This document shows, piece by piece, positions 1 through 13,011 of a stretch of DNA of 64,000 nucleotides. The stretch lies in assembly GCF_003018235.1 (NCBI RefSeq), contig NZ_CP027438.1; one strand, 5' to 3'. The position numbers and the translations under genes were made by a program. The notes beneath the pieces were generated by a model. The model did not search any database. It saw nothing but the letters and a program-made list of their open reading frames with translations, and was not told the origin of the DNA. Position 1 is the stretch's first letter, and the number at the start of each line of letters is the position of its first letter. This DNA is from Escherichia coli. Lineage in GTDB: Bacteria > Pseudomonadota > Gammaproteobacteria > Enterobacterales > Enterobacteriaceae.

Positions 1-81
1 GCGACCTCGTAATTTTCTCGTTCAAGACAGTTGCTTATATCTGAAATTATTTATTTGGGTGATTTATATAATTGATAAATA

Positions 82-870
82 TTAGATATCGGAACTTTCT
101 AATCGGATGCGTTTCTCTTTCTGTCTGGTGAGGAATTTTTTCGGTGTCAACCCATAATATAAATTAAACACCTTGATGAAGTGAGAAACACTTGATATTC
201 CTACCATACAAGATATTTTGCTCATTTGCAATTCATTTCTTAATATTAACATCGCTGCCTTTTTCATCCTCACTTCAAGAAGAATCTGGCAAAAACTGGT
301 ATTCTCGGCACTCAGTTTTTTACGTATAGATATTTCAGACAAGCAGATTTCTTTTGCAATAGTTGATAACTTCCATTTTTTAGATGTGTCAAGCTCAATA
401 ATCCTACGTATTCTGTCACTAAATAAATTTGTTGTTGATGTTATTAATGCGTCAAATATCCTTTGAGGATCTTGTCCTTTAGATAAAAAGCATGCTAATT
501 TATACAGTTTGAGCCTGTAGTTATTCGTTGATTTTATTGCTTTATATAACTCATTGGATAACTTATCTTTTTCTATTAAAAATATATAATTTTCTGTCTT
601 ATTTTTTTTTGTATGACCTAGGGATTTAAGCTTACCATCATAAAAAAATGGGGACATTATCTTAATTACATTATTAATATCGCCTTGGTTTAATTCGATG
701 CAATCATATGGGGCAGTAGTTAGCAATCTTCTCTTTTCTATAAGAAGAAAGCAATTGCTTTTAATAGTGATTGCTTTTATCCCATTGGTAATGCTTATAT
801 GACAGCCATTTGAATTTATCAAAATGTAGTCATTGGTATGGAGTTTTTTTCTTGTCTCTATCGTTTTCAT
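82..870 (-). CDS. AraC-family transcriptional regulator (Rns/AggR/PerA-like virulence regulator type)
   Basis: 262-aa ORF; C-terminal twin HTH region (KKWKLSTIAKEICLSEISIRKKL...ISCMVGISSVSHFIKVFNLYYGLTPKKF) typical of AraC/XylS activators of fimbrial and virulence operons; AT-rich; divergent from the Lnt-like gene at 979. Confidence 0.8.
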   Translation of the reverse strand: MKTIETRKKLHTNDYILINSNGCHISITNGIKAITIKSNCFLLIEKRRLLTTAPYDCIELNQGDINNVIKIMSPFFYDGKLKSLGHTKKNKTENYIFLIEKDKLSNELYKAIKSTNNYRLKLYKLACFLSKGQDPQRIFDALITSTTNLFSDRIRRIIELDTSKKWKLSTIAKEICLSEISIRKKLSAENTSFCQILLEVRMKKAAMLILRNELQMSKISCMVGISSVSHFIKVFNLYYGLTPKKFLTRQKEKRIRLESSDI

Positions 871-978
871 ATAAAAATATATATACCGATTTTATGATTC
901 TAGAATGCATTATTATACTTATATTTTCATCATGATATGTTATATTTTTCAATATTCGGCTACTCAAAGTGAAGTTTA

Positions 979-2445
979 TTGGTCCCTTTTTTGTTTCTTG
1001 TAGGAGGATATTTCAATTTATTAATTTCACTGGCTTTAGATACGTTGCTGATCAGTTCTTCAACATGGTTAAGTAAATCGGCTTTGTGTTTAATATCGAA
1101 GTTGGCTGTATTCCAAAATACAGCAAAGAACCTTGCGAAGAAGTTCGAGAGCTATATAGCCTTACATGAACGATTACCAATTCTGATAGGTCGCTTAGGC
1201 ATAACAATAAAATTATACGGAAAAATGATTATAGATTTCCTCATGATATTATATTTGTTTTTTTTGCTCAAGTATGTGACTAAAGGAAAATTTACCATCG
1301 CATTATTATTCTTGCTATTTTTTAATGTTTTATTTTTCGTCTTTATTTTTGATAATAGTTCTTGGGATGTTATTAAATCTAGTTATGGGATGGCACCATT
1401 TGCTTTGTCATCTATAATAAATGCGCAGGTTATACTAGTATTTTTTTTGCGCAATAAAGGCGCTTATAAAATTGGACTGTCATCTTTTATCCCTCCAATT
1501 TTGTTTTCTTTCTGGGACTTTAATTTTATCTTTCCCGCTCATCCGTTGATGACTTTATATCAATATGATATCTTTTATAAGTTTCTTCCCAGATTTCACA
1601 TAAATTTGATTAATGTAATTATATTATATACAATTCCGTTTTGTTTTTTGTTACCATTAAAAAGAATTATTTTAATTTTATTAATCGCATGTCTATCATT
1701 TTTTACTAACTGGAATTTATCTGAACATAAAAAATTAGGTATAAAAGTTCTTATTGTACAGACGGGGATGTATGCATCAACACATGGCAGAATGGCTGAC
1801 TTAAGGGATGAAGTTTTTAAGTACAGAGATGCTGACATTGTCATTTTTTCAGAATCACCAATTGTTGGATTTAAAGATGGTAGCCGGACTGCATTTAGCC
1901 GTGAATTTCTTGATGAGATAAAAAGAAAACGTGACGGGAAACTTTATATTCTTAATAGTTATGGGTTTATTGATGATGAAAGACACAATAACAATTTAAG
2001 CTTATATGTTTTAGATGGAAAAACCTTTGTTAAATATAAAAGTAAACTTGTACCTTTTTGGGAGACACCTGGTCTATTTTATAGAGATGTTGACTGGGAA
2101 TCACCATATTTTTCCATTCCATCCACAAATAACAATGATAAATATAAATTCAGAAATATATATATAAACTCATATATTTGTTATGAGGCAATGTTTGTTA
2201 ATCACTTCAACAAGTTAAGTGATTTAACAATAATACAATCAAATTATGAATCATTTAGTAAAGGTTATGATAGCGTAGTGAAGAATGGTAATGTTCTGGC
2301 TTATGTGAATAAATCATATAGTTTTAAAAATTTCATATCTGTGCAAAATATGGGGGGGACTATATTTGTCGATAGCTCAGGAAGGTTTCATTGGGATGTA
2401 TATAAAAAGTCCAAAGAAAAATCTGTATTTCTTTTGGAAATTTAA
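979..2445 (+). CDS. Lnt-like apolipoprotein N-acyltransferase homologue (AatD-like)
   Basis: 488 aa; very hydrophobic multi-TM N-terminal half, C-terminal nitrilase/CN-hydrolase-like half with ICYE motif (predicted catalytic Cys); plasmid-borne, AT-rich, beside an AraC regulator and upstream of Aat-like transporter genes. Confidence 0.6.
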   Translation: MVPFLFLVGGYFNLLISLALDTLLISSSTWLSKSALCLISKLAVFQNTAKNLAKKFESYIALHERLPILIGRLGITIKLYGKMIIDFLMILYLFFLLKYVTKGKFTIALLFLLFFNVLFFVFIFDNSSWDVIKSSYGMAPFALSSIINAQVILVFFLRNKGAYKIGLSSFIPPILFSFWDFNFIFPAHPLMTLYQYDIFYKFLPRFHINLINVIILYTIPFCFLLPLKRIILILLIACLSFFTNWNLSEHKKLGIKVLIVQTGMYASTHGRMADLRDEVFKYRDADIVIFSESPIVGFKDGSRTAFSREFLDEIKRKRDGKLYILNSYGFIDDERHNNNLSLYVLDGKTFVKYKSKLVPFWETPGLFYRDVDWESPYFSIPSTNNNDKYKFRNIYINSYICYEAMFVNHFNKLSDLTIIQSNYESFSKGYDSVVKNGNVLAYVNKSYSFKNFISVQNMGGTIFVDSSGRFHWDVYKKSKEKSVFLLEI

Positions 2446-2689
2446 TTTTACATTTAATCCAGATGAAAATATATATGTGGTGTGGAACAGGCTTCGGTTG
2501 TCGAATAATGATTATTATTTCACAAATTATGAGAGACTTAGGAAGTAATAGAGTCATACCTATAGTTATTGATAATGAGCAATCAAATGTGCTGACATTT
2601 GTAGCAACATGTTTATGGTTAGATTTTTATCAGAAATTACGAACAACGCTATAGATAACCTGTAAGTATCCTGCATAATTGTGGTATTC

Positions 2690-3800
2690 ATATTTAGAGA
2701 TCATACGGCATAATCAATCTATCAACGAAGGAGATCGCTATGCATAAACCTGTTGTACTGGGCATCAGATCATCGCTGTGATTAAGTCAGTTGAAGCCAG
2801 ACGAACCGCTAAAGATGTCTGCCGGAAGGTCGGTATCTCTGAAGCCACCTACTAAACAGATGTTTGCTGACCTGAGTCTGGAGAACCGGGCGCTGAAAGA
2901 CGTTATCGAAAAAAGCATTAAAACAAGCCTTTAAGCGTGAGCTGGTCACTCATCTGATAACGACATTCGGACTCAGTATCCGTCAGGCCTGCCGGAGTCT
3001 GAACCTGAGCAGAACGGTTTACCATTACCGCTGTCAACGCCACGATTTTGACCGTCCTGAAAGGTTAGATAAGCACGTTCTACACGGCCTTTTGCCTGAC
3101 TGGTTTCTGCGCACAGCAGTGTGATATTGAGGGAGCGCATGACCCTGGCAAACTGAGCTTCACCGGGACCGGTGGTAGCATGCTTATTGTTTACCCGGAA
3201 GACACTGGCTTTGTCGCTGTAGAGGAACATGGGCTTACCATGTTTTCCGATATAGCTACGGGTCGCTTCAAAATAGGTAAATGTGGATTCAGATTTCACA
3301 AACAGCAAGTGCATCAGGCGACTGGTGGCATCGTCAACATAGACAAGAGCTGTACAGGGTCGACCCCGGTTTTCAAACCAGTGGTGGTCACAGCCATCAA
3401 TTTGTATCAGCTCGCCAGCACAAGGCCGCGGTAATGAGGCTGATGAATTTTAGGTGCGCGCTGTCCGCGTGGGGCCAAAATCACGGTATTGCTCCCTGAT
3501 TATACTGAGTGCCTGATCTGTCAGTGACGCTGGCAACAGACGGTTACCAGTGCGGCCACGACTCTGGTTGTTCATGCCAAGCGGTCCGAGTTGACGATGG
3601 CGTTTCAGCAGTCGGCTGCAATGACGTGGTGTAATGCCGAGCATCTCCGCAGCCTGGCCAGGACGCAGATTGCGATCGATGACATCCTGAAGGATTTTGA
3701 GGCGGTTGATTTCTTTCACGTTAAACATCCCGGCGTCATGTATAGCCATAGAAAACTCCTCATCAGGAAAAGTGAGTCGTTGTCTAGACATACAGATCTG
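2690..3800 (-). mobile_element. IS debris: frameshifted rve-domain transposase (ORFs 3450..3791 and 2973..3314, minus) plus short IS3-family fragment on plus strand
   Basis: HTH N-terminus (MSRQRLTFPDEEF...GITPRHCSRLLKRHRQLG) and DDE/rve-like C-part in different frames; no intact ORF. Confidence 0.45.
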
Positions 3801-3977
3801 AGAACTATCGCCTGGACATCCCTAATTGGGTAATTGGAGCCACAAAAGACATTAGCAGTGAGCCTCTACAATCTTGATGCGCACAATCTATCTTATGTTA
3901 AATCTAGACAAAATAACGTCTAAAAGCGATACCTTATACAAATAACAACACTAAATTTTTACGCCAGTAGCCCGAAC

Positions 3978-5224
3978 TAGACTGGCCCCCTGAATCTCCA
4001 GACAACCAGTATCACTTAAATAAGTGATAGTCTTAATACTAGTTTTTAGACTAGTCATTGGAGAACAGATGATTGATGTATTAGGGTCGGAGAAACGCAG
4101 ACGGCGTACCACACAGGAAAAGATCGCTATTGTGTCAGCGCCAGTGATATAAGACGGTAATTCACCATTTGGATTGTCCGCTCCACCCAACATGTTGTTT
4201 CCTTAAGGTTCTCACACCAGGAAGGAAGTCTTACTGCTGTGGCCGCCGGAGAACAGGTTGTTCCTGCCTCTGAACTTGCTGCCGCCATGAAGCAGATTAA
4301 AGAACTCCAGCGCCTGCTCGGCAAGAAAACGATGGAAAATGAATTCCTCAAAGAAGCCGTTGAATATGGACGGGCAAAAAAGTGGATAGCGCATGCGCCC
4401 TTATTGCACGGGGATGGGGAGTAAGCTTCGTCAGCCGTTGTCTCCGGGTGTCGCATGCGCAGTTGCACGTCATTCTCAGACAAACCGATGACTGGAAGGA
4501 TGGCCGCCGCAGTCGTTATACTGATGATACGGATCCATGTTATCGGAGAGCTGCCCACGTATGGTTATCGTCGGGTATGGGCGCTGCTTCGCAGACAGGC
4601 AGAATTTGATGGTATGCCTGCGATCAATGCCAAACGTGTTTACCGGATCATGCACCAGAATGCGGAAAAACCTGCTGTACCGCCATCGAAACGGGCACAT
4701 ACAGGCAGAGTGGCCGTTAAAGAAAGCAATCAGCGATGGTGCTCTGACGGGTTCGAGTTCTGCTGTGATCGTGAGGCACTGCACTGGGCGGTGACTACCG
4801 GCGGCTTCAACAGTGAAACAGTACAGGACGTCATGTTGGGAGCGGTGGAACGCCGTTTCGGCAACGATCTTCCGTCGTCTCCAGTGGAGTGGCTGACGGA
4901 TAATGGTTCATGCTACCGGGCTAATGAAACACGCCAGTTCGCCCGGATGTTGGGACTTGAACCGAAGAACACGGCGGTGCGGAGTCCGGAGAGTAACGGA
5001 ATAGCAGAGAGCTTCGTGAAAACGATAAAGCGTGACTACATCAGTATCATGCCCAAACCAGACGGGTTAACGGCAGCAAAGAACCTTGCAGAGGCGTTCG
5101 AGCATTATAACGAATGGCATCCGCATAGTGCGCTGGGTTATCGCTCGCCACGGGAATATCTGCGGCAGCGGGTCTGTAATGGGGTAAGTGATAACAGATG
5201 TCTGGAAATATAGGGGCAAATCCA
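3978..5224 (+). mobile_element. IS2 (defective: insC region scrambled) flanked by 5-bp direct repeat CGAAC
   Basis: Ends TAGACTGGCCCCCTGAATCTCC ... GGAAATATAGGGGCAAATCCA; InsC C-terminus (ORF 4239..4424) and InsD-like ORF 4455..5213 recognisable; CGAAC at 3973-3977 and 5225-5229; element about 84 bp shorter than canonical 1331 bp. Confidence 0.85.
4455..5213 (+). CDS. insD: IS2 transposase InsD (OrfB)
   Basis: 252-aa ORF with IS2 InsD sequence ([20 protein letters not shown]...[28 protein letters not shown]...[12 protein letters not shown]). Confidence 0.8.
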
Positions 5225-5764
5225 CGAACCCAAAGTGGGTTATGTACAGATGAAGGCTGACAGTGTCATATACAGTCACGTGCTATTATTGGTTGGGCTA
5301 TGTTGCCATGTCTGGAGGCGTTATGTCCCCCACAGGGCATTATCGTTCGCTTAGCATAGTTCAATATTACAAATGGTAGAATCACTTTTTAAATAACATC
5401 CTATATATGCAGAGCTGCTGCACTATAACTTTGGTATCATCTATGGGGTAAGTGTAAAATATCAATAATGGCTCAAGTTACTTTCGTTATTATGTAAGGT
5501 ATATATTCATGCATATTTATACGGTAGCCTATTATGTAGAGGATATACAATAGCTATGGTTTATTTTCCTTTGCTAGGATTTGTATGATTTTTTACTCAT
5601 TTACAGCATTGACATCAGTAGACTGTGATTCTAGGTGTGTAACCCGAAGATGTTATTTTTTATATCTAGTCAGTATACAGCCAAATAGAGTGCAGGTGTT
5701 TTTTGTTGCTATAAAAATCGTTGGAATAATTAAATGGTATTATCAATGAACCATCAGCAATAAT

Positions 5765-6892
5765 ATGTATATATATATAGTTGAAGCAATATTAAATCTC
5801 AAAGAAAACATCAAATACACATTAACATTTATATTATTTTTATCACTTAGTTTTCTTGGAGTTATTATTACAGATTCTTTAATTTATAGCGTATCAATAC
5901 AGGCTGAAAAAGAATTAAAGTCTAATGGAAACAATATTATGTCTATTGATTTACATACCCCTACATCAGCAGATAGGATAAAGAAAGTATTAAGTAAATG
6001 TTGTACAGAGCTATCTTTTTCACAACATTCTTTTCTGAATGGAGGGAAATCACCTTATTCCAGTGACGGATTGCCCGTAATAGCTGTAGATAAAAAAGGG
6101 ATTAGTCTTATTATGGATGAAAAAATTGGAAAAAAATTCGAAGGTAATGTGGCGGTTTACAATAATAATAAACAAACAGAGTCAATTAATCCAGAATCTA
6201 TATTCCTAAATGGCTTGCCTTTTCAAATTATTGGCATAAAGAATAAATCCAAAACAGAGTTTCTTGATAGTCTTGGGTTATCCACGAACAGTTCAAACGA
6301 GAAATATTATATCCCTCTAGAGACTCTGTTTAGGTTTAATCTATCTAATGAGATCGATAATGTAAAAATAATAATGAATAGAGATGTAACCTCTGACATG
6401 ATAACAATGATAGAACATACACTAAATGAAAACAATATAAATAGATACACAATAACGACATCTTTAGATGCAAGAGAAATTGTGGATAAGGTATTAAACA
6501 GATTCTCTATTCTTACAAATTCAATATATATATTATTAACTACTACAGCTATTTTTAGTAGCATAACTGTATGTAAAAGAAATTTCTTTTCCAGAACAAC
6601 AGAGTACTCATTAAAATTAATACATGGTATATCTTATAGCTCTATAAGAACAATATTAATAATAGAGACCATTTTTACTGTTGCTGTAAGTCTATTATTT
6701 TCCATTCTAATTTCGGCATTAACAATAATATCAATGTCGGGATTGCTATCTATTGATATAAGCATAAGATGGTTTATGATAATAATATCTTTAACTATTG
6801 TACTATTAACTTGTTTTAGTGCTAACTTCTATTACAGCAATAAGACCTTTAAAATAAACCCTATCGAGCTAATAAGATTAAGAGCAAAATGA
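5765..6892 (+). CDS. ABC transporter permease, FtsX/MacB-type (AatP-like)
   Basis: 375 aa; N-terminal TM, large periplasmic domain, C-terminal cluster of TM helices; first gene of a 4-gene AT-rich operon. Confidence 0.65.
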   Translation: MYIYIVEAILNLKENIKYTLTFILFLSLSFLGVIITDSLIYSVSIQAEKELKSNGNNIMSIDLHTPTSADRIKKVLSKCCTELSFSQHSFLNGGKSPYSSDGLPVIAVDKKGISLIMDEKIGKKFEGNVAVYNNNKQTESINPESIFLNGLPFQIIGIKNKSKTEFLDSLGLSTNSSNEKYYIPLETLFRFNLSNEIDNVKIIMNRDVTSDMITMIEHTLNENNINRYTITTSLDAREIVDKVLNRFSILTNSIYILLTTTAIFSSITVCKRNFFSRTTEYSLKLIHGISYSSIRTILIIETIFTVAVSLLFSILISALTIISMSGLLSIDISIRWFMIIISLTIVLLTCFSANFYYSNKTFKINPIELIRLRAK

Positions 6893-8100
6893 AATATTTC
6901 AAAAATTTGTCACTCATAGTCTTTGTTAATTTTTGCTTTTGTAGTAATGCCTTGTCCTCATGCAGTCTTGATGTATATTTGATGAAATCGAAAACATATA
7001 GATCATTCAATATAGAGCAAGAAGAAACAAGCATACAAAATAAGCATTTTTCTTCGTCGTATTTACCAAGTATATCTGTAGGAATGGGGCAATATATTAA
7101 TAATGACAAAGGGTTCGTAGACCTTGGAAAGACTTCTTTTTATATTTCAGCGTCACAACTTATCTTTTCAGGTGAAAGTTTAGGATATAATAATAAAAAA
7201 AATGAAATTGATGATAATAGAAGGCATATTTCATTCGAAAAAGAAAAAAATGATATGTTACTGAAAATATATGAAGATACAATACAACATAAATATTTAA
7301 GTGAAAATATAAAACTAACATTAAATCAACTAAATAAAGTTCAGGCTGAGTATCAAAAATCACTATTGGATTTAAAGTCTGGTAATATACCATCACTAGA
7401 AGTAGATGTTAAGTCATTAAATGTTTCAAAAATGAAAAATACTCTTAATACACTTTACGATGACTTAAAATTACTTGAGGAAAAATTTATTGCTGATTAT
7501 TCAATACCTCCTGAAAATATATCTAAAATTACTGACAGTGATATTATATCATGTAAGTCAATGGGATATCGCGAGCTGCTCGAAACAAACAAACAGAATA
7601 AACTACAACAAGCAGATGTTGAACTTGATATCAATAAGTCGGCACTACTTCCGTCTGTATATTTATCTGTTGGGTTGACACCAAAAAATGAGGGAACACT
7701 CAGAGACTTGAATCTTCGGACAATGAACTATAATGGTGGGATAAGTGTTAGCATTCCATTAACGAATATTTTTAATTCTTTCGCTAACCAAGAAAAATTT
7801 GCACTTAGTGTTACTAAAGCTAATCTGGAGTCAGACGATGAGAAAAAAAAACTGCTTATAATGAAGAAGAATATTCTTAATAAATACTCGAACATTAAAA
7901 ATGACATACCCATTTTGGAAAAAGAAGTTGAATTAAAAAGAAAAAAAATAGAATACCTGCAGTGGATGGTAAAAGATAAAAAAGAAAATGTGCTTTCATA
8001 CCTTAACTCACAGGATGAATTATATGACTCAACAATTAAACTTAACAAATATAAGCGCGATCTCAAATATTACAAGCTTTATCTTGATTTTATTAATTAA
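6889..8100 (+). CDS. TolC-like outer membrane efflux protein (AatA-like)
   Basis: 403 aa; signal peptide (MKYFKNLSLIVFVNFCFCSNALS), coiled-coil-rich sequence typical of OEP family; start overlaps permease stop (ATGA). Confidence 0.6.
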   Translation: MKYFKNLSLIVFVNFCFCSNALSSCSLDVYLMKSKTYRSFNIEQEETSIQNKHFSSSYLPSISVGMGQYINNDKGFVDLGKTSFYISASQLIFSGESLGYNNKKNEIDDNRRHISFEKEKNDMLLKIYEDTIQHKYLSENIKLTLNQLNKVQAEYQKSLLDLKSGNIPSLEVDVKSLNVSKMKNTLNTLYDDLKLLEEKFIADYSIPPENISKITDSDIISCKSMGYRELLETNKQNKLQQADVELDINKSALLPSVYLSVGLTPKNEGTLRDLNLRTMNYNGGISVSIPLTNIFNSFANQEKFALSVTKANLESDDEKKKLLIMKKNILNKYSNIKNDIPILEKEVELKRKKIEYLQWMVKDKKENVLSYLNSQDELYDSTIKLNKYKRDLKYYKLYLDFIN

Positions 8101-8836
8101 TTTATTTCCATGTGCCTTGCATGCCGAAGTCTATTATGGCATTTTAAGAGGAAGTGAGTCTATTTTATACAAAAGTCCATATTCCGGATTTATTGATATA
8201 AATAATTTAAAAGAAGGTGATATCCTAGAAAATGAAAATATTTTCACCATTCATAATTATGAGTATGACAATAAGAAAAAAATTCTTTCATTACAGATAA
8301 AAAAAGAAGAAAAGCAGAGGAAAAGATTAAAAAGGCAATTGAAAGACTCTTTTTTGGCCTATCAAAATGGATTTTTGTCCCATAATGACTTGGCTAATTA
8401 TGAAGACAAATTGGATGATATAGAGCTTTCATTGATAGGTTTACGTTCTGATTTAAATACTTTGGATAATGTATTGCAGTTAGGTAAAGTGAATATAGAT
8501 AGACCTTTTATTGTAAGAGATATTGGTGTTACAAATCGACAATATGTTAATTCTGGAGATTCATTAATAAACATTGAATTATTAGATAATTTCTTCGTTG
8601 ATATAAAAATTGATCCAGTTGTGTTTAAAGGTAATATAAAGAATAAAAACGTAAATTATGTGTCCATGGTTGGGAACGTAACTGGAAAGGCTTCTGTTGT
8701 AAGAATCTCTAGTGTCATTGATAACGCAGGTTCTAAAGCATCAGGAATGAGGATGGTCACTCTACTCATACATGGCGAGAGAAACACTCTGCAGTCTCTA
8801 TTAGACACAGCATTTAAGATTGAATTTAATGATTAG
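8024..8836 (+). CDS. periplasmic adaptor-like protein (AatB-like); start uncertain
   Basis: ORF 7988..8836 overlaps 3' end of the OMP gene; first ATG followed by a TM/signal segment (ISAISNITSFILILLINLFPCALHA) at 8024. Confidence 0.5.
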   Translation: MTQQLNLTNISAISNITSFILILLINLFPCALHAEVYYGILRGSESILYKSPYSGFIDINNLKEGDILENENIFTIHNYEYDNKKKILSLQIKKEEKQRKRLKRQLKDSFLAYQNGFLSHNDLANYEDKLDDIELSLIGLRSDLNTLDNVLQLGKVNIDRPFIVRDIGVTNRQYVNSGDSLINIELLDNFFVDIKIDPVVFKGNIKNKNVNYVSMVGNVTGKASVVRISSVIDNAGSKASGMRMVTLLIHGERNTLQSLLDTAFKIEFND

Positions 8837-9458
8837 CTTATATATAAACAAAAAAGAATTCAGAGATAAGACAATACTCTCTGACACATGCATTGAGATT
8901 ATTGAAGGCGGTTTTTATGTAATAACCGGTCCCTCGGGTGTCGGTAAAAGTTCATTGCTTAATATAATTGGTTTATTAGATGGAGATTTTGATGGAAACT
9001 ATATTTTCTATGATAAAAAGATAAGTTTCAGTAACTACAATAGTACGCAAGAGCTAAGGAGGTTGTATTTTGGATATATATTCCAAGACTCATTGATTAA
9101 TGAGAGGCAAGATCTTATTCGTAATATTCTTTGTTCTGTTGATTATTCCCTGCAGAACAACAGGAGGCATCTTGTTAATCATTTTTTGTCAGTTGTTGGA
9201 TTATCTTCAAGGACAGAGAGTGCTTCTGTTTTATCAGGGGGGGAAAAACAAAGGCTCGCTCTAGCTAGAGCACTAATAAAAAAACCCAAAATATTATTAG
9301 CAGATGAGCCAACGGCTAGTCTTGACAGAGAAAATAAAGAAAAAATAATGGATATATTCAAAAAATTCACTAATGAAGGAGGTACTGTAGTAATGGTGAC
9401 TCATGATTTGGAATTAATAGATGAAAAAATTCAAGTAATAAGACTTAATAATCATTAA
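8820..9458 (+). CDS. ABC transporter ATP-binding protein (AatC-like)
   Basis: 212 aa; Walker A GPSGVGKSS, ABC signature LSGGEKQR, Walker B LLADEP. Confidence 0.8.
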   Translation: MNLMISLYINKKEFRDKTILSDTCIEIIEGGFYVITGPSGVGKSSLLNIIGLLDGDFDGNYIFYDKKISFSNYNSTQELRRLYFGYIFQDSLINERQDLIRNILCSVDYSLQNNRRHLVNHFLSVVGLSSRTESASVLSGGEKQRLALARALIKKPKILLADEPTASLDRENKEKIMDIFKKFTNEGGTVVMVTHDLELIDEKIQVIRLNNH

Positions 9459-9479
9459 GAATCGATAAGCTATTTTTAT

Positions 9480-9754
9480 CATCGGGCGGCACTGTAAGCC
9501 AGCGATAAATACGCAACGAAACGTACCATGCTGACAGATATCTTTAACAGTAACTACCAGTATTATGGCTATCGTCGCCTGCATGCGATGCTCAGATATG
9601 AGGGGCTATGATTCTCAGAAAAATCTGAACGCAGACTTATGGTTACACGCCCCGACGCTGAACATGGTCAACACCATGTTGGATAACGCTGTCGAAACGT
9701 TAAATACAGACGACTGACTGATGATACACAGCGATAATATTAGATTTACTAAGG
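9480..9754 (+). mobile_element. IS3-family transposase OrfB fragment (remnant)
   Basis: Translation contains YGYRRLHAMLRYEGL-type OrfB N-region motif; no intact ORF. Confidence 0.35.
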
Positions 9755-12198
<2,444 letters not shown>

Positions 12199-12209
<11 letters not shown>

Positions 12210-13011
12210 CTACATGCAGGCCTACCGAGCATCCGGTCTTTTGCCCGACATGGCGAACAATAACGCGGTGCATGTTAACGAAAAAATCATACCGAATGTG
12301 GCCGCCGGTCTGATAAAAGTTAAACCCCTGGCAGAGCGTTTCACCGGAGAAGGCGCTATTAAGTTCGTCGACGCATCTCAGGAAAAATATGATGTAATCA
12401 TAACCTGTACAGGCTATGAAATGCCTGATTACTTGTTCATTCAGGGATTTGACAGAACACAGCTCTATGAGCACTTTTTCTGGACAGAGGACCCTTCTCT
12501 GGCCGTCATTAATCCCCCGGTGGATACCGCCGGTTTCGGGGCTGCGTTTCCCTATTTTGATATCATCAGCCAGTGGGTAATGAACGTATTCTCCGGGAAG
12601 ACTTCCCTTCCGGAAAAAGAAGCTATGCGCAAATGGTGTGCTGAGCACATGGCTTCACTTCATGTTAAGCGATTTTATGACAGCTGGCTGGAAACCATCC
12701 GGATTGGGTTGCTGTCAGGTCTTCTCCCGGACCCGGCCCGCGACTTTTCCCGATACTGGAACATCATCAGCAGTATGGTCAAACCTGCCTATCTGGCCAC
12801 TCCTCCCGCATTTCCGGAGCATGGTATGATGGACAGCCTGTTTGATTTCCGGATCGCCAAAATACGCATACTGTCAGGGCTGGGAAACGATGCTCTCGGT
12901 TATTTACTGAAAAAAGGTGATATCACTGACGCAGAATACCGGGCGGCCCTGGAAATCGATCCCCGGCAGTCGATTTCTGTACACCTGCCGTATTCACAGA
13001 CCTACCTCTGA
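12199..13011 (+). CDS. flavin-dependent monooxygenase-like protein, probably a C-terminal fragment
   Basis: 270-aa ORF with ITCTGY motif typical of FMO/N-hydroxylase C-terminal regions; no N-terminal FAD-binding fingerprint seen. Confidence 0.3.

Follow-up and report, generated by a model that had tools for sequence, protein, structure and literature searches.

Does an Lnt-like acyltransferase gene that stands apart from a set of Aat-type transporter genes belong to the same secretion system, and is its separation a native arrangement or the outcome of insertion sequence (IS) activity? The question is raised by a stretch of 64 kb from an Escherichia coli plasmid circle of ~69 kb (contig NZ_CP027438.1), referred to here as the window. 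Aat is a composite secretion pathway, part Lol-like and part type 1, for the export of Aap/CexE-family lipoproteins that are acylated on glycine, and it acts as a virulence and colonisation factor of enteroaggregative E. coli (EAEC), enterotoxigenic E. coli (ETEC) and C. rodentium. To our knowledge, it is the only known route for N-acylating glycine and exporting the resulting lipoprotein. Judging from sequence homology, the catalytic residues, the predicted fold, the gene layout and the contexts in relatives, the window very probably carries a complete, intact and divergent Aat system, in which the acyltransferase gene aatD would natively form a transcription unit of its own, apart from aatPABC. 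All six open reading frames (ORFs) listed for the region 82-9458 in a preliminary description of this DNA are present as described.

The five aat gene products were compared by BLASTP with reference AatPABCD proteins from the O104:H4 pAA plasmid, ETEC E7476 and marmot STEC299, and the K-12 proteins Lnt, LolCDE and MacAB served as controls. All five match AatPABCD. This agrees with the preliminary description, in which 5765..9458 had been read as genes for a permease, a TolC-like outer-membrane protein, an adaptor and an ATPase in the EAEC AatPABC order, and the five products had been judged by eye to be distant from known proteins; the identities to EAEC measured here are 28-60%. AatP showed 41-45% identity to the references over its full length (E 1e-94 to 5e-101), 64% identity to AatP of the relative L009 and a Pfam FtsX match at 3.7e-6. 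For AatA the identities were 29-36% (E 4e-59 to 6e-77), with an NCBIfam TolC family match at 3e-9, and for AatB 38-45% (E 3e-64 to 2e-79), with an RND_mfp match at 4e-6. AatC shared 57-60% identity with the references (E 4e-81 to 3e-85), as against 34-35% with MacB and LolD, and its translation contains Walker A (GPSGVGKS), signature (LSGGEKQR) and Walker B (LLADEPT) motifs. Neither AatP nor AatB gave a BLASTP match to K-12 LolC, LolE, MacB or MacA at E≤0.01. The products do not cluster with MacAB-TolC or LolCDE; such an identity was rejected on the basis of these controls, the separate ATPase and permease genes and the presence of the TolC-like gene within the operon. MacB, in contrast, is a fused ATPase-permease that works with the adaptor MacA, and the LolC/LolE permease pair has no outer-membrane channel.

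The operon overlaps are all as in EAEC, with 4 bp between aatP and aatA, a long overlap between aatA and aatB, and 8 bp between aatB and aatC. Alignment with AatB of EAEC and L009 places the aatB start probably at 8024, and aatC probably starts at ATG 8829. A lipobox considered for AatA (LSSC) was dropped: a Cys near the end of the signal peptide is conserved, but the AKDC of EAEC/ETEC is unlike a lipobox. The genes of the aat region are AT-rich, as noted before, with a GC content of 26-33% compared to 45-55% in the IS-derived DNA.

BLASTP aligned the product of the detached gene with EAEC AatD over its full length (28% identity, E 1e-28), and its residues E210, K272, E280 and C319 were invariant in an alignment of 31 sequences. 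This Glu-Lys-Glu-Cys site corresponds to E267, K335, E343 and C387 of Lnt. In AatD, the catalytic residues are E217/K278/E286/C325, and mutagenesis shows that the site is needed in both AatD and Lnt (PMC7943197). A confident AlphaFold (AF2) model of the protein (pLDDT 86, pTM 0.87) was searched with Foldseek against the PDB, and the top 24 matches were all Lnt (E about 1e-10), with the membrane and the nitrilase-like domains aligned. In a neighbour-joining tree, the clade that contains the window AatD is the sister group of canonical AatD, and Lnt lies outside both; BLASTP gave no match to K-12 Lnt at E≤0.01. The protein is an AatD homologue whose grouping is with AatD, apart from housekeeping Lnt. 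It belongs to a deep, poorly annotated and rare subclade of AatD; among 5,426 complete E. coli genomes, two contain it. When 1.84 billion representatives were searched exhaustively with a profile, only 28 clusters were returned; the AatD family is therefore small.

Searches of NCBIfam, Pfam and PDB sequences with the window AatD alone or with a 12-sequence clade profile returned nothing meaningful, a resolvase match in PDB phmmer/hmmsearch (E 0.007) being spurious. An hhalign comparison with K-12 Lnt gave the correct register at a non-significant E of 0.023.

The gene had previously been described as an Lnt-like ORF at 979..2445. The Lnt-like character was borne out by the predicted fold and the homology to AatD, but the start was not: TTG 979 was rejected, as relatives begin at the Met encoded at 1225, which gives a protein of 406 aa. 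Relatives of 58-74% identity with a complete N-terminus have 406-408 aa and align from this Met, and EAEC AatD aligns to residues 90-488 of the 979-2445 ORF. The upstream extension is not conserved, as a relative with 91% identity has a 1-nt difference in the A run right before the ATG that shifts the frame. The public 484-aa models of this AatD (P0001) are probably over-extended. The 84 open in-frame codons upstream of the ATG (973-1224) are unusual at roughly 30% GC.

Detachment of aatD was judged in those contexts of the AatD subclade where the upstream side of the gene is readable. In every one of them aatD is detached, in several different geometries. L009/10/11 carry a cargo gene, aatD, 2.2 kb of IS debris and aatPABC, a window-like order at 59% AatD identity. 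In L016-18 the order is aatPABC, the regulator gene AraC2, two cargo genes, aatD and the regulator gene AraC1, with about 8 kb between aatPABC and aatD. In L012, 8.4 kb separate aatD from the divergently oriented aatP, and on plasmid p2 of cM8a (L025) aatD and aatCBAP are on opposite strands, at a distance of 8.8 kb. L007 and L023 have a cargo gene followed by aatD and no aatPABC in the flanks examined, which comprise 21 kb of a 95-kb contig and a 9-kb contig, respectively, so that aatPABC may lie elsewhere. On the Yersinia contig L019 the upstream sequence is too short to judge the placement of aatD. In the deep-branching relative P0019, aatC is followed directly by aatD, and detachment is therefore derived within the subclade. 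The comparison suggests that in the subclade of the window AatD, aatD is a natively separate unit, usually beside a cargo gene or AraC1.

According to the preliminary description, aatD is normally the last gene of the operon, and its uncoupling was implied to be novel. Icke et al. (eLife 2021, PMC7943197) analyzed 826 Aat systems and defined six layouts; aatD was located >1 kb from aatPABC in 25% of the systems, which comprise 11.9% with aatD alone, 9.0% with aatD beside a cargo gene and 4.1% in which aatD, the cargo gene and aatPABC are each at a separate place. The position at the end of the operon is the majority layout, and the implied novelty does not stand. As aatD-aatC contiguity is thus not a defining feature, the 3.3-kb separation does not exclude membership in the Aat family (PMC7943197). 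While a detached aatD is already documented, it may be new, in a modest way, that the detached layout tracks a deep and rare AatD subclade and that an AggR-like regulator travels with the AatD enzyme.

The partner of aatD in these contexts is either a CexE-like gene (L007, L009, L023) or an AggR-like activator gene (window, L008/L025, L012, L016, L019). Orthologues of AraC1 (52-62% identity) are found 0.5-4 kb from aatD in L008/L025, L012, L016 and L019, in varying orientation. Between the window and cM8a p2, the identities amount to 80% for AraC2, 83% for cargo 1, 86% for AatC, 78% for AatP, 76% for AatB, 75% for AatA, 69% for AatD and 59% for AraC1. This unevenness hints at a history of the aatD-AraC1 pair other than that of the transporter-cargo set. 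AatD might even constitute an autonomous, separately regulated module that is moved by IS-mediated exchange independently of aatPABC, although we consider this unlikely. If it were true, glycine acylation could be switched on separately from export, and the module could serve several cargo paralogues or anchor proteins in cells without the transporter.

Alternatively, the detached AatD could be independent of AatPABC and acylate proteins that stay anchored in the membrane or leave by other means, in which case the two would not form one system. In line with this, the cargo-aatD pairs of L007 and L023 come without aatPABC in the flanks, AraC1 accompanies aatD, not aatPABC, and ETEC AatD by itself suffices for CexE acylation in E. 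coli BL21 (PMC7943197). However, aatD, aatPABC and cargo genes are found on one replicon or contig in the window, cM8a p2, L009 and L016, the L007 and L023 flanks are short, and the identities of AatD and AatPABC to the canonical proteins drop together, as expected for co-inherited partners. Moreover, ETEC secretes only acylated CexE (PMC7943197). An AatD working on its own account is therefore quite improbable, and we retain the reading of a single system with a natively separate aatD.

The distance between the aatD stop (2445) and the aatP start (5765) was measured as 3,319 bp, in accordance with the 3.3 kb given in the preliminary description. The gap starts with 214 bp of AT-rich DNA 3' of aatD, followed by three IS relics and ~540 bp of unique DNA (Table 1). 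An IS2 with a CGAAC target duplication had been reported here along with other IS debris. Both 5-bp repeats were read as intact direct repeats (3973-3977 and 5225-5229), but the IS2 copy itself is decayed: its ORFs are broken, and other IS2 copies match it in 4-5 pieces of 91-97% identity. The other debris consists of an IS3-family left-end fragment and an ISNCY fragment. Among 5,426 complete E. coli genomes, the unique segment 5230..5764 has no match except in the sibling record of this plasmid, and it could not be aligned with the regions upstream of aatP in L009 or L012.

These relics, together with an IS100 ~0.6 kb downstream of aatC, the ending of homology to relatives at gene borders and the abundance of IS copies on the plasmid, could be taken to mean that a canonical aatPABCD operon was recently broken by IS rearrangement and aatD moved from 3' of aatC to 5' of aatP. 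However, tblastn revealed no aatD remnant downstream of aatC and no second AatD-like sequence anywhere in the window, the intact target duplication indicates a simple insertion of IS2, and in L009, at 59% AatD identity, the order aatD, IS debris, aatPABC is already present. All other readable contexts of the subclade are likewise detached, with differing geometries, and we assign a recent breakage a very low probability. Since aatD is detached in all readable contexts, no remnant follows aatC and IS2 is a simple insertion, the detached layout appears native to the lineage; of the two origins left open in the preliminary description, the native architecture is thus favored over a rearrangement by IS elements. 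The gap consists of IS relics and unique AT-rich filler between two separate units and does not mark a site where an aatPABCD operon was recently disrupted.

A shared ancestral spacer was sought by comparing the 3' flank of aatD and the 5' flank of aatP with those of L008, L009 and L012, and only the IS3-family end was found in common. In the window, L009 (11576-12031) and L008 (11397-11565), this left end follows aatD at a distance of 175-350 bp and has the same orientation in all three. The aatD genes of the three lineages are 71-77% identical in DNA and their IS3-family pieces 82-94%. The common end may go back to one old insertion that the lineages share, to a hot spot or to a recombination boundary, and it suggests that IS-mediated exchange defines the edge of the aatD module.

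The intactness of the system was assessed against the public sibling record, the 69-kb IncF plasmid NZ_CP076711.1 (L001) of an E. coli O158:H23 strain, which is 99.1% identical to the first 9.6 kb of the window. Over positions 1-9600 there are 89 differences, 60 of which are indels; nearly all of these are deletions in NZ_CP076711.1, mostly in A/T homopolymer runs. This pattern looks like long-read assembly error and not like decay. As a result of these deletions, most aat-region genes are fragmented or not annotated in that record. The window is the cleaner copy of the plasmid, and all its aat genes are intact. The surrounding IS relics, the rarity of the lineage and the fragmented genes of the sibling record might suggest that the locus is in decay and no longer functional on a plasmid riddled with IS copies. 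This is very improbable, given the error signature of that record, the full-length state of the five aat ORFs, the two cargo genes and the two regulator genes, the intact catalytic and ATPase motifs and the preserved operon overlaps.

Several points weigh against a complete system with a natively detached aatD. The IS3-family end common to three lineages means that IS-mediated events did shape module boundaries. The cargo genes lie ~40 kb from the aat genes in the window and ~17 kb away the other way round the circle, and their assignment as cargo is one of family membership only. Scans for sigma-70 promoters and terminators yielded 48 sites against 43.5 expected, which is no excess over chance in such AT-rich DNA. 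The AggR-type motif WWWWWWWTATC was found at 37 sites against 11 expected; this excess reflects the AT-rich islands and was not used as evidence. Both the AatD clade profile and the single sequence fail to find Lnt by sequence, and the link of the window AatD to Lnt runs via canonical AatD and the predicted fold. Finally, AatD of C. rodentium failed to complement EAEC aatD, so that divergent AatDs are not interchangeable (PMC7478709).

Table 1. Positions of the aat genes, the intervening DNA, the regulators and the cargo candidates in the 64-kb window.
Feature	Coordinates	Strand	Description and basis
AraC1	82..870	-	AggR-like AraC/XylS regulator, divergent from aatD; similarity to AggR
AraC1-aatD intergenic region	871..1224	.	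Divergent, presumed promoters; read from sequence
aatD	1225..2445	+	Stand-alone Lnt-like N-acyltransferase, 406 aa; similarity to AatD, active-site residues, predicted fold
IS3-family left-end fragment	2660..3031	+	OrfA remnant; 82-94% identity to the same element in L008 and L009
ISNCY-family transposase fragment	3054..3904	-	Megablast, 88-95% identity to annotated ISNCY transposases; ORFs on minus strand
Decayed IS2	3978..5224	+	Sequence reading; matches to IS2 family transposases
Unique, mostly AT-rich DNA	5230..5764	.	Presumed aatPABC promoter; position upstream of aatP
aatP	5765..6892	+	FtsX-type ATP-binding cassette (ABC) permease; similarity to AatP, Pfam FtsX
aatA	6889..8100	+	TolC-like outer-membrane protein; similarity to AatA, NCBIfam TolC family
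aatB	8024..8836	+	Periplasmic adaptor; similarity to AatB, NCBIfam RND_mfp
aatC	8829..9458	+	ABC ATPase; similarity to AatC
AraC2	48330..49139	-	AraC/XylS regulator, divergent from cargo gene 2; similarity to aatC-adjacent AraC genes
Cargo 2	50074..50481	+	CexE/Aap-family, 135 aa; signal peptide ...SFNSFA|GSH; BLASTP
Cargo 1	51554..51919	-	CexE/Aap-family, 121 aa; signal peptide ...SVSAFA|GSQ; BLASTP

The cargo candidates were found by searching the six-frame translation of the window with CexE-like proteins. Cargo 1 matched the CexE-like protein of E7476 with E 3e-15 and Aap with 1e-6 in BLASTP, and it is 83% identical to a cM8a p2 protein. Cargo 2 gave E 2e-11 and 5e-7 in the same comparisons and 2e-22 with the protein encoded upstream of aatD in L007. 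In both candidates, a Gly follows the signal peptide (FA|G), and two Cys and a GYA(S/K)GV motif are conserved in the alignment, from which the cleavage sites were also derived. No Pfam match to the candidates was obtained; the Pfam copy evidently lacks the Dispersin family PF28204, which has been precomputed for relatives, or does not match them to it. In L023, the gene of a distant AatD relative (36% identity) is directly preceded by a CexE-like gene (5261-5629), whose product has Ala after the predicted signal peptide (...SSAMA|AQK) and not Gly, the established acylation target of AatD.

The AraC gene on the minus strand at 82-870 is divergent from aatD, as previously described. AraC1 shows 40.5% identity to AggR over 158 aa (E 2e-37), and in NCBIfam it matched the generic AraC helix-turn-helix only. 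AraC2 shares 30% identity with AggR, 68% with the product of the aatC-adjacent AraC gene of L016 and 80% with that of cM8a p2. One WWWWWWWTATC site (5656-5666) is found 100 bp upstream of aatP and was likewise not used as evidence, and none was found on the aatD strand of the AraC1-aatD intergenic region. Searches of the window for Aar (ANR) and PI-PLC homologues were negative.

By analogy with EAEC and ETEC, where acylation and export have an experimental basis (PMC7943197, PMC7478709), both CexE-like proteins would pass the inner membrane via Sec, and cleavage after ...FA would leave an N-terminal glycine. The membrane enzyme AatD could then place an acyl chain on this glycine through a thioester at Cys319 of its Glu-Lys-Glu-Cys site. 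The permease AatP and the ATPase AatC would extract the acylated cargo, and AatB together with the TolC-like AatA would hand it to the cell surface. AraC1, beside aatD, and AraC2, beside a cargo gene, are the likely switches. While the picture of how Aat works is unchanged by this locus, it would represent a natural case of enzyme and transporter under separate, presumed promoters, and the divergent branch could help to tell which residues glycine acylation and cargo recognition really require.

Other parts of the plasmid were also inspected. A second export system is encoded at 22442-25866 on the minus strand, in an AT-rich island of 31-35% GC. It consists of an ABC exporter of the peptidase type with 714 aa (HlyB/bacteriocin-export families, E 4e-108) and an adaptor of the HlyD type with 427 aa. 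An operon for a type IVb pilus, with a pilin-like gene, secretin, ATPases and prepilin peptidase, occupies 61294-64000 and continues at 1-10796 of L001; on the plasmid circle it extends as far as AraC1. The same operon is found with the Aat modules of cM8a p2 and L008. Two identical, inverted IS3-family copies (53588-54738, plus strand; 59784-60934, minus strand) and two IS100 copies in opposite orientation (10081-11882, plus; 55509-57311, minus) bracket parts of the plasmid and are substrates for inversion and rearrangement.

Among the known systems, the Aat/dispersin (Aap) system of EAEC on the pAA plasmids of 042 and O104:H4 has five components homologous to those of the window, with the same PABC order and overlaps. 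An AatD with the E-K-E-C site, a small cargo protein (secreted in EAEC, a candidate in the window) with Gly after its signal peptide and an AggR-class AraC regulator on the plasmid are likewise found in both. The identities to the EAEC proteins are 28% for AatD, 29% for AatA, 38% for AatB, 41% for AatP and 60% for AatC. In contrast to EAEC, aatD of the window does not follow aatC as a fifth gene but lies upstream of aatP beside a regulator, and the window has two cargo paralogues and two AraC regulators and no detectable Aar homologue. On the ETEC E7476 plasmid aatPABCD are contiguous, and the cargo candidates of the window are closer to its CexE-like protein than to Aap.

Plasmid 3 of ETEC E1441 (L026) has an aatD that is convergent and about 1 kb after aatC, and is thus detached as in the window. 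This homologue is a 414-aa 'hypothetical protein' (11256-12500, minus strand) with 34% identity to EAEC AatD (E 2e-73), and an msbB-like pseudogene fragment lies between it and aatC. The ETEC AatDs, however, belong to the canonical clade, with 28% identity to the window AatD, and the detached gene is differently placed and oriented. NZ_CP076711.1 represents the plasmid type of the window itself at 99% identity. The nearest distinct relative is cM8a plasmid p2 (NZ_JBYTPC010000003.1), which has the same modules including the type IVb pilus operon; its AraC1 and aatD point in the same direction and are separated by a PI-PLC gene, which the window lacks.

Housekeeping Lnt is a chromosomally encoded, essential enzyme of about 512 aa that acts on diacylglyceryl-Cys lipoproteins. 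The Lnt structures of E. coli and P. aeruginosa (PDB 5N6H, 5VRG and 5XHQ, among others) combine helical membrane and nitrilase-like domains, which match the predicted fold of the window AatD. The latter differs in being plasmid-borne, AT-rich and shorter (406 versus 512 aa), with about 16-22% identity, and by homology to AatD its substrate would be an N-terminal glycine and not the diacylglyceryl-cysteine of Lnt.

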